From contig JBBCGO010000001.1 of assembly GCA_037200925.1 (NCBI GenBank), forward strand, positions 9,552-73,551: DNA of 64,000 bases, written 5' to 3'. The stretch is from Candidatus Doudnabacteria bacterium. GTDB taxonomy: Bacteria; Patescibacteriota; Doudnabacteria; UBA920; O2-02-FULL-48-8. This document shows, piece after piece, positions 23,167 to 23,217 of this stretch. Position numbers and translations under genes: made by a program. The stretch's first letter is position 1; each line of letters opens with the position of its first letter. The notes beneath the pieces are model-generated. The model ran no database searches. It was not told where the DNA came from and saw nothing but the letters and a program-made list of their open reading frames with translations.

Positions 23167-23217
23167 GTCATCCCGGACTTGATCCGGGATCTAGATTCCC
23201 GCTTTCGCGGGAATGAC
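23167..23217. repeat. 51-bp compound palindromic intergenic element, copy 1 (two adjacent hairpins)
   Basis: GTCATCCCGGACTTGATCCGGGATCTAGATTCCCGCTTTCGCGGGAATGAC. An expanded copy of the same sequence lies at 38706-38778. Confidence 0.6.

Follow-up and report, generated by a model that had tools for sequence, protein, structure and literature searches.

Two hairpin pairs in a Candidatus Doudnabacteria genome, probable gene-less dimers of CGTC-type REPs related to the NTS and SRM motifs

Why does a 51-bp compound hairpin, built from two inverted stem-loops, occur between the genes for an ABC transporter ATPase and a permease and again, with additional nucleotides in its middle, between ctpA and alaS in the genome of a Candidatus Doudnabacteria bacterium? 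Both copies lie in the 64,000-nucleotide stretch analyzed here (64 kb, contig JBBCGO010000001.1, positions 9,552 to 73,551, hereafter the window), for which a first-pass annotation had proposed either a REP/MITE-like mobile element or a conserved RNA-level processing or termination structure, with an ordinary duplicated regulatory hairpin as the outcome that would refute the proposal. Based on the anatomy of the units, their occurrence in other genomes and the genes that such repeats enclose elsewhere, we consider it probable, at about three chances in four, that each site is a gene-less HH dimer of CGTC-type REPs, equivalent to the NTS and SRM motifs, residing in a CPR genome.

Two paired hairpins and their genomic setting

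The element is present twice in intergenic DNA as first described, and Pfam agrees with the gene context assigned to it, ABC ATPase and permease on the one hand and ctpA and alaS on the other (Table 1). In the 64-kb window, the left hairpin (GTCATCCCGGACTTGATCCGGGATC) and the right hairpin (ATTCCCGCTTTCGCGGGAATGAC) have two perfect occurrences apiece, always as a pair; no further copy of either is found in the window with up to 3 mismatches, and the chance expectation is 0 for either hairpin (100 shuffles). Copy 2 corresponds to copy 1 with 22 nt added between the hairpins (GGGATC[CATAAAATACTCACTCAATAAC]TAGATTCCC); the reported 22-nt insert is therefore real, although the spacer string printed with it was one base short. 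The gap between the two GATC-bounded units is 2 nt in copy 1 and 24 nt in copy 2, and in copy 1 the tails of the left and right units overlap in the palindrome CTAG (23191-23194), leaving no spacer. A core GTCAT..CCCG...CGGG..ATC is common to both hairpins, which differ in having stem ATCCCGGA with loop CTTGA versus stem ATTCCCGC with loop GAAA. They had been called imperfect inverted copies of each other; they are indeed related and inverted, but the differing stems and loops mean that they are not true inverted copies.

Table 1. Positions of the element copies, their units and the neighboring genes in the window
Feature	Position	Strand	Description
ABC transporter ATPase	22236..23150	+	Pfam; stop codon 16 nt before copy 1
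Copy 1, whole element	23167-23217		Intergenic
Copy 1, left hairpin	23167-23191		GTCATCCCGGACTTGATCCGGGATC, exact
Copy 1, left unit	23166..23194	+	Tag AGTC; stem ATCCCGGA/TCCGGGAT, 8 bp; loop CTTGA; tail CTAG
Copy 1, right hairpin	23195-23217		ATTCCCGCTTTCGCGGGAATGAC, exact
Copy 1, right unit	23191..23218	-	Minus-strand sequence TGTCATTCCCGCGAAAGCGGGAATCTAG; CGTC-1-type REP
ABC-2 permease	23243..24460	+	Pfam; start 25 nt past copy 1
S41 (CtpA-like) peptidase	37450..38697	+	Pfam; stop codon 8 nt before copy 2
Copy 2, whole element	38706-38778		Intergenic
Copy 2, left hairpin	38706-38730		GTCATCCCGGACTTGATCCGGGATC, exact
Copy 2, left unit	38705..38733	+	TGTCATCCCGGACTTGATCCGGGATCCAT; tag TGTC; tail CCA
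Copy 2, spacer between units	38731..38754		CATAAAATACTCACTCAATAACTA; 22 nt of it absent from copy 1
Copy 2, right hairpin	38756-38778		ATTCCCGCTTTCGCGGGAATGAC, exact
Copy 2, right unit	38752..38779	-	Same sequence as copy 1 right unit; NTS-like, 27/28
Separate terminator-like hairpin and T-run	38784..38813	+	Downstream of copy 2; TGTTATAAT and the alaS start come next
alaS, short	38823-40553		Pfam; downstream of copy 2

As either RNA (-27 to -28 kcal/mol, z -3.3 to -4.8) or single-stranded DNA (-17.2 kcal/mol, z -4.0 and -5.2), each copy folds into a pair of adjoining GC-rich hairpins. When the units of copy 1 are taken separately as single-stranded DNA, the left one forms a hairpin of -8.4 kcal/mol (z -3.7) and the right one a hairpin of -9.0 kcal/mol (z -5.7). 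A role in transcription termination, one of the functions first suggested, is contradicted by the lack of a T-run behind either element hairpin on the coding strand. There is no terminator-like site at copy 1, and around copy 2 the sole plus-strand site of this kind is the separate hairpin at 38784-38805, which belongs to the host sequence and persists in a relative without the element. The TGTTATAAT box that follows it (region 38806-38825) ends about 7 nt before the alaS ATG, which suggests that the alaS transcript has no leader, or a very short one; the box is conserved in this relative (L246, about 20650-20673). The alaS product itself has only 576 aa and lacks the C-terminal domain, and the alaS stop is overlapped by a glucose-6-phosphate isomerase gene. 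The right end of copy 1 forms a promoter-like ATGACA-18-AATAAT, which was set aside as its -10 box abuts the conserved start codon of the permease gene.

Comparison with other Doudnabacteria shows that neither insertion is general. In relatives (L243/L244, with ATPases of 88% identity, and L245, with 80%), the ATPase stop and the permease start are 1-2 nt apart and the element is absent; the nearest relatives being only 88% identical and the window spacer consisting of the element plus 41 nt, these are imprecise empty sites. Likewise, the ctpA-alaS spacer of L246 lacks the dimer and keeps the terminator hairpin and the TGTTATAAT box, and no CGTC hairpin is found in about 95 kb of Doudnabacteria relatives. 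These comparisons support the view that the window dimers belong to a dispersed, insertion-polymorphic repeat. A third relative carries an unrelated 94-nt insert with small hairpins of its own at the ATPase-permease junction (L242, 9816-9909), a junction that seems to accept insertions repeatedly. Within the source genome, about 81 kb contain two dimers only, that is, about 0.5 hairpins per 10 kb, which equals the hairpin density beyond the focal dimer in other carrier genomes (0.5 per 10 kb). A Logan contig (L001) with 99.99% identity to the window includes copy 1. An ATPase identical to that of the window bears the NCBI name Candidatus Doudnabacteria, and an origin in Omnitrophota, which the 67% TypA identity to L158 had suggested, is rejected on this account.

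Some other features of the window deserve mention. Two paralogous non-coding segments of about 135 nt (44150-44290 and 44830-44970, plus strand) precede rpsM (S13, 44433-44828) and the S11/S4 genes. They consist of conserved single-stranded blocks separated by two hairpins, which differ wholly in sequence and keep their pairing (GTCCCGATTTATCGGGAC versus GGCGCGACAGCGCC; GCATTTTACGAAGTAAAATCGC versus GTATCCCGCCAAGGCGGGATTGC); they look like structured leader RNA and have no Rfam match at E values up to 1. Three open reading frames are rich in repeats: one encodes a 1055-aa protein with a Pro/Thr tract of 9-nt period (11584-14751), another a 308-aa protein with seven Cys-containing repeats of 102 nt (26441-27367) and the third a 1716-aa protein with repeats of about 294 nt (49450-54600). 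A class A RNase P RNA (57677-58046, plus strand) scores 101.5 bits, barely over the gathering threshold of 100, and is the only Rfam family found in the window at gathering thresholds.

Unit anatomy and dispersal of the dimer

CGTC-tagged REPs have an unpaired CGTC or TGTC tag, a stem of 8-9 bp starting with AT, a loop of 4 nt in family 1 and of 5 nt in families 2-4, and a CCA-like tail; they form mainly tags-outward HH dimers, frequently heterodimers, with complementary spacer ends, and they cluster near the 3' ends of upstream ORFs, with occasional intragenic copies, including some in tRNA synthetase genes (Di Nocera, De Gregorio, Rocco 2013, BMC Genomics 14:522). Members include dRS3 of Neisseria and the Rickettsia elements RPE-6 (CGTC-1) and RPE-4 (CGTC-4), and the survey that defined them spanned five phyla, none of them CPR (Di Nocera et al. 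2013). The units of the window share this anatomy: the tag is TGTC in three of them and AGTC in one, the stems have 8 bp with loops of 4 and 5 nt in the single-stranded DNA folds (ATTCCCGC with GAAA, ATCCCGGA with CTTGA), and the tail is CTA in all units but the left one of copy 2, which has CCA. In the compound element, an HH dimer whose tags point outward, the left unit is of the family-2 type and the right unit of the family-1 type. Beside these REPs, a 28-nt motif termed NTS (CGTCATTCCCGCGMAVGCGGGAATCYRG), which contains dRS3, has been defined together with a degenerate Ssn-related motif, SRM (Chenal et al. 2025, Nat Commun 16:2388). In both copies, the right unit agrees with the Neisseria NTS consensus at 27 of 28 positions, with a single mismatch; all four units, including the CGTC-2-type left unit of copy 1, match the SRM regular expression, and they are its sole hits in the 64 kb, where 0.12 would be expected.

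The likeness to CGTC-1 and CGTC-2 REPs extends from the tag, the AT-initiated 8-bp stem, the loop length, the tail and the HH (hetero)dimers to the complementary spacer ends, the position near the 3' end of an upstream ORF and the occasional intragenic copies. The differences are that the host belongs to the CPR/Patescibacteria, that the dimer is a hybrid of two families, that the tails of copy 1 overlap and that the left tag AGTC is rare (2 of 119 dimers). The inverted, tags-outward layout is also that of NTS-ssnA-NTS, and the window's genome possesses a small single-domain GIY-YIG gene; however, the window motifs enclose no ssn gene, the resident GIY-YIG gene is not flanked by the motif and the copy number is apparently low. 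Compared with the dRS3, NIME and REPIN repeats of Neisseria, the core ATTCCCGC-N4-GCGGGAAT fits the dRS3 pattern ATTCCC-N8-GGGAAT and the units likewise form inverted pairs, but the loop is GAAA rather than GCAG, large mosaic arrays are lacking and no RAYT was detected. As for RPE-4 and RPE-6 of Rickettsia, hybrid dimers also occur in frame inside genes in other genomes (L140, L215 and L240), whereas both window copies are intergenic.

When one genome per species was searched for the compound pattern (left stem, N7, right arm, 0-30 nt, second hairpin), the dimer appeared in at least 120 genome stretches from many phyla, many of them in CPR; the record of the source genome is not among the stretches listed. 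Judging by the record titles of the matches listed, the carriers comprise many CPR lineages, Alpha-, Beta- and Gammaproteobacteria, Omnitrophota, Bacteroidota, Zixibacteria, Desulfobacterales, Sulfurovum and an actinobacterium. Some titles are doubtful, so that phylum counts are approximate: certain 'uncultured Gammaproteobacteria bacterium' entries ('binchicken' TPA) are unreliable, as illustrated by L224, which shares its context with the Daviesbacteria locus L144. Several MAGs, including CPR ones, have at least 4-5 hybrid dimers/contigs each, and a hairpin core of 48 nt is shared by records labelled Doudnabacteria, Saccharimonadia, Omnitrophota, Bacteroidota and Sphingomicrobium. A degenerate single-hairpin scan of IMG/VR yielded many variants of the form GTCAT-stem-loop-stem-ATC, the exact left hairpin among them, often as convergent pairs with a short spacer (matches listed). 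In an unconstrained viral sample, the stem positions covary (T-A 108, C-G 56, non-pairs 5, among the matches listed).

The dimers themselves display the same constraints. Among the 122 listed, the loop-closing pair covaries (A..T 64, G..C 44, C..G 6), TTTC, CTGC and CTTC predominate in the second loop, and the spacers of 2-30 nt, which begin with CAG, CAT or CAC once the C of ATC is passed, have complementary ends, as in cag...ctg, or are reduced to a minimal catg; copy 1, with its tails overlapping in CTAG, is the analogue of this minimal form. In the 119 listed dimers whose boundaries were compared, position -1 is T or C in 97% at both ends, and direct repeats at the element boundaries are no commoner than expected by chance, leaving no sign of a target-site duplication. 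This negative result, and the lack of a parent IS, with no transposase among the genes of the window, mean that the element is not a classical MITE. The other part of the original proposal, a REP-like dispersed and mobile element, is supported by the unit anatomy, by the absence of the element at the relatives' junctions and by its presence in at least 120 genome stretches of many phyla.

The dimers show no orientation bias (16 versus 19 in 35 unidirectional contexts), and about a quarter of those listed lie inside long open frames. For instance, LeuRS-like genes of CPR MAGs contain an in-frame dimer (L140, 4107-4171; L215, 3370-3425; L240, 265-317) that encodes VIPAQAGIQ...SR(I/V)K(S/P)GMT, inserted at the same alignment column in L215 and L240 and elsewhere in L140. 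Peptide strings of the element had no match in a literature search. All-against-all clustering of the ORFs around the at least 120 dimers revealed no recurrent transposase or recombinase; the top cluster consists of class I aminoacyl-tRNA synthetases, and this is because of the in-frame insertions.

Association of the repeat class with GIY-YIG nuclease genes

The ssn genes sit between two inverted motifs (NTS-ssnA-NTS), and their product SsnA (GIY-YIG_unchar_3, cd10448) binds the single-stranded DNA hairpin and cuts just 5' of it, is inactive on double-stranded DNA and on RNA, and lowers transformation of N. meningitidis by NTS-bearing DNA (Chenal et al. 2025). In our data, three orthologous alphaproteobacterial contigs have a GIY-YIG homologue between two inverted CGTC units. 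A metagenome scan by the peptides of one GIY-YIG protein alone recovered 80 loci (54-81% identity); a CGTC hairpin lies within 150 nt of the GIY-YIG gene in 74 of the 80 and on both sides in 50, and 46 have a tags-outward bracket around the gene, while, at the background density of the outer flanks, a locus window would be expected to contain about 0.05 hairpins. In the bracketed units, whose median length is 383 bp, the left and right hairpins co-vary between loci; the outer contexts are diverse. Gene-less dimers found beside gene-carrying units have spacers resembling both ends of the unit's inner flanks. The bracketing of GIY-YIG genes by CGTC units, which has already been published (Chenal et al. 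2025), is independently reproduced here. On one metagenomic contig (L279, 2861-3537), four or more hybrid dimers of two other CGTC variants are arrayed in tandem behind the GIY-YIG gene, in which a unit with a 7-nt loop (GTCATTCCCGCATGCTTTAAGCGGGAAT) is paired with ATACCCGC...GGGTATGAC; this local expansion resembles the mosaic arrays of Neisseria.

A single-domain GIY-YIG protein of 89 aa, P0121, is encoded in the source genome some 8 kb upstream of the window (L251, 1199-1468). It has 34% identity to an NTS-flanked homologue, with which it also shares its best relatives in the PDB (1zg2 and 1ywl, both UPF0213 proteins); NCBIfam gave no informative family for these GIY-YIG proteins. P0121 may not be the cognate enzyme of the window hairpins, since its gene, closely surrounded by housekeeping genes, lacks flanking CGTC motifs and its close CPR relatives are bracketed by a different repeat, a tight, non-SRM inverted repeat CCCCCACACCT...AGGTGTGGGGG (L335, 1487-1770; L345, 1468-1790). 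A variant bracket, ATCCCCTCTCAC...GTGAGAGGGGAT, surrounds a CPR-type GIY-YIG gene in L204 (2030-2325). Read-through peptides in other CPR-type homologues (..PHIKFM.., ..KFGVGD..) imply that the CCCCCACACCT/AGGTGTGGGGG repeat is present there too, and many of these homologues are on very short contigs.

Taken with the properties of SsnA, these observations suggest how the window dimers could have arisen. As a single strand, each unit would fold back into a GC-rich hairpin of 8 bp, leaving a YGTC tag unpaired on the 5' side and a C(C/T)A tail on the 3' side. Because they have the same bracket as the motif-ssn-motif unit, with 2 or 24 nt replacing the gene, the window dimers may be miniature non-autonomous forms of this unit, or its empty sites. 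By analogy with SsnA, we infer that they would be substrates of an Ssn-type nuclease in the host, and that this nuclease, or recombination at its nicks, could have spread the copies, insertion having presumably taken place just past stop codons, where it is tolerated. The hairpins carried by the ATPase-permease and ctpA transcripts would then be a side effect, with possible 3' protection or uncoupling of two cistrons.

Competing explanations and significance for CPR bacteria

The double hairpin could instead be a selected cis-acting RNA that stabilizes the upstream 3' end or sets the ATPase:permease ratio, as E. coli REPs do in malEFG. Such a role would agree with the strong RNA fold, with the sense orientation of both copies 8-16 nt past a stop codon and inside or at the end of a transcription unit, with the location of copy 2 between the ctpA stop codon and the terminator, and with the clustering of CGTC REPs near ORF 3' ends (Di Nocera et al. 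2013). A similar REP pair is moreover contained in the Francisella sRNA FtrB, a 115-nt RNA that accumulates in vivo. A relaxed Rfam search gave nothing but weak FtrB (RF02748) matches on the minus strand at 23147-23226 and 38684-38813. The two scores, 20 and 27.9 bits, are far short of the gathering threshold of 66. The FtrB consensus holds GUCAUUCCCGCGUAGGCGGGAAUC and a second hairpin with a UCAAG loop; it differs from the present case in that the match here is on the non-coding strand and the repeat core alone is in common. FtrB appears to be a transcribed REP pair (a CGTC-1 REP and the UCAAG-loop hairpin), a point that the 2010 paper does not make; GATTCCCGCCTACGCGGGAATGAC is part of the Northern probe published for it. 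Yet deletion of ftrB has no phenotype and SsnA is inactive on RNA (Chenal et al. 2025). The window hairpins probably do fold in transcripts. Nevertheless, since relatives have the element at neither orthologous site, their ATPase and permease genes being translationally coupled, since its orientation is unbiased and since the same element occurs in frame inside genes, any effect on RNA is more likely a by-product than the reason for the element, and selection for an RNA function is a distinctly improbable explanation of the two sites.

An equally slim chance attaches to mobilization as a REPIN, that is, a non-autonomous inverted REP pair copied by a single-copy IS200-like tyrosine (HUH) transposase, RAYT, which acts on single-stranded DNA hairpins. 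The definition of a REPIN (two inverted REPs less than 130 bp apart) does fit, and RAYT mobilization has been proposed for the ATTCCCGCGCAGGCGGGAATC repeat of Neisseria, where REPINs built on this 21-mer are found together with a Group 2 RAYT and decay if the RAYT is frameshifted (Bertels and Rainey). However, a tblastn search of the window, its flanks and about 2 Mb of other loci, including 120 dimer stretches, gave no hit with E <1 to E. coli RayT (Group 2), the conserved tag is YGTC and not GTAG, the gene bracketed by CGTC units is a GIY-YIG gene and not a RAYT, and no tyrosine transposase flanked by CGTC units was found in the earlier survey (Di Nocera et al. 2013). Even less credit is due to a recombination target, an attachment site for an IS110/Piv-type recombinase or a filamentous phage: dRS3 of Neisseria is reported as a phage recombinase target in the introduction of Chenal et al. 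(2025), but gene calling in the window and its flanks gave no recombinase, transposase or phage gene, and the unbiased ORF clustering around the dimers yielded no recurrent recombinase either. Finally, that only two copies exist in about 81 kb of the source genome would be compatible with chance, or with a local duplicate of a regulatory hairpin having no wider family. With zero matches expected and the same units in hundreds of unrelated contexts, this has almost no probability left, and the 'ordinary duplicated regulatory hairpin' is untenable on the family-level evidence.

Gene-less HH dimers of CGTC-type REPs being the preferred reading, the repeat class and its partner nuclease are already described and no new category of element is involved; what goes beyond the published work is the extension of the host range to CPR and the mismatch between the motif and the resident nuclease clade, these alone. 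The published surveys were made on cultured or RefSeq genomes and CPR were not reported, whereas the hairpins recur here in CPR genomes of about 1 Mb, whose small gene sets should make it easier to search for the enzyme that reads or spreads the motif. For genome annotation, the element accounts for spurious peptides, among them VIPAKAGIQ, SFPRKRESS and PDQVRDD, and for short in-frame inserts in CPR proteins. Given that the resident GIY-YIG clade is differently bracketed, one may speculate, with considerable doubt, that the NTS-like hairpins of CPR, nearly identical to those of Neisseria and sphingomonads, are recent cross-phylum imports or else orphan sites of a nuclease of new specificity. 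CPR hosts are organisms living by DNA uptake. On this speculative reading, the dimers could gate the survival of incoming single strands, as NTS and SsnA do in the transformation of N. meningitidis. The modulation of Neisseria transformation by Ssn and NTS raises the question of what effect the motif may have on DNA uptake and recombination in these episymbionts.
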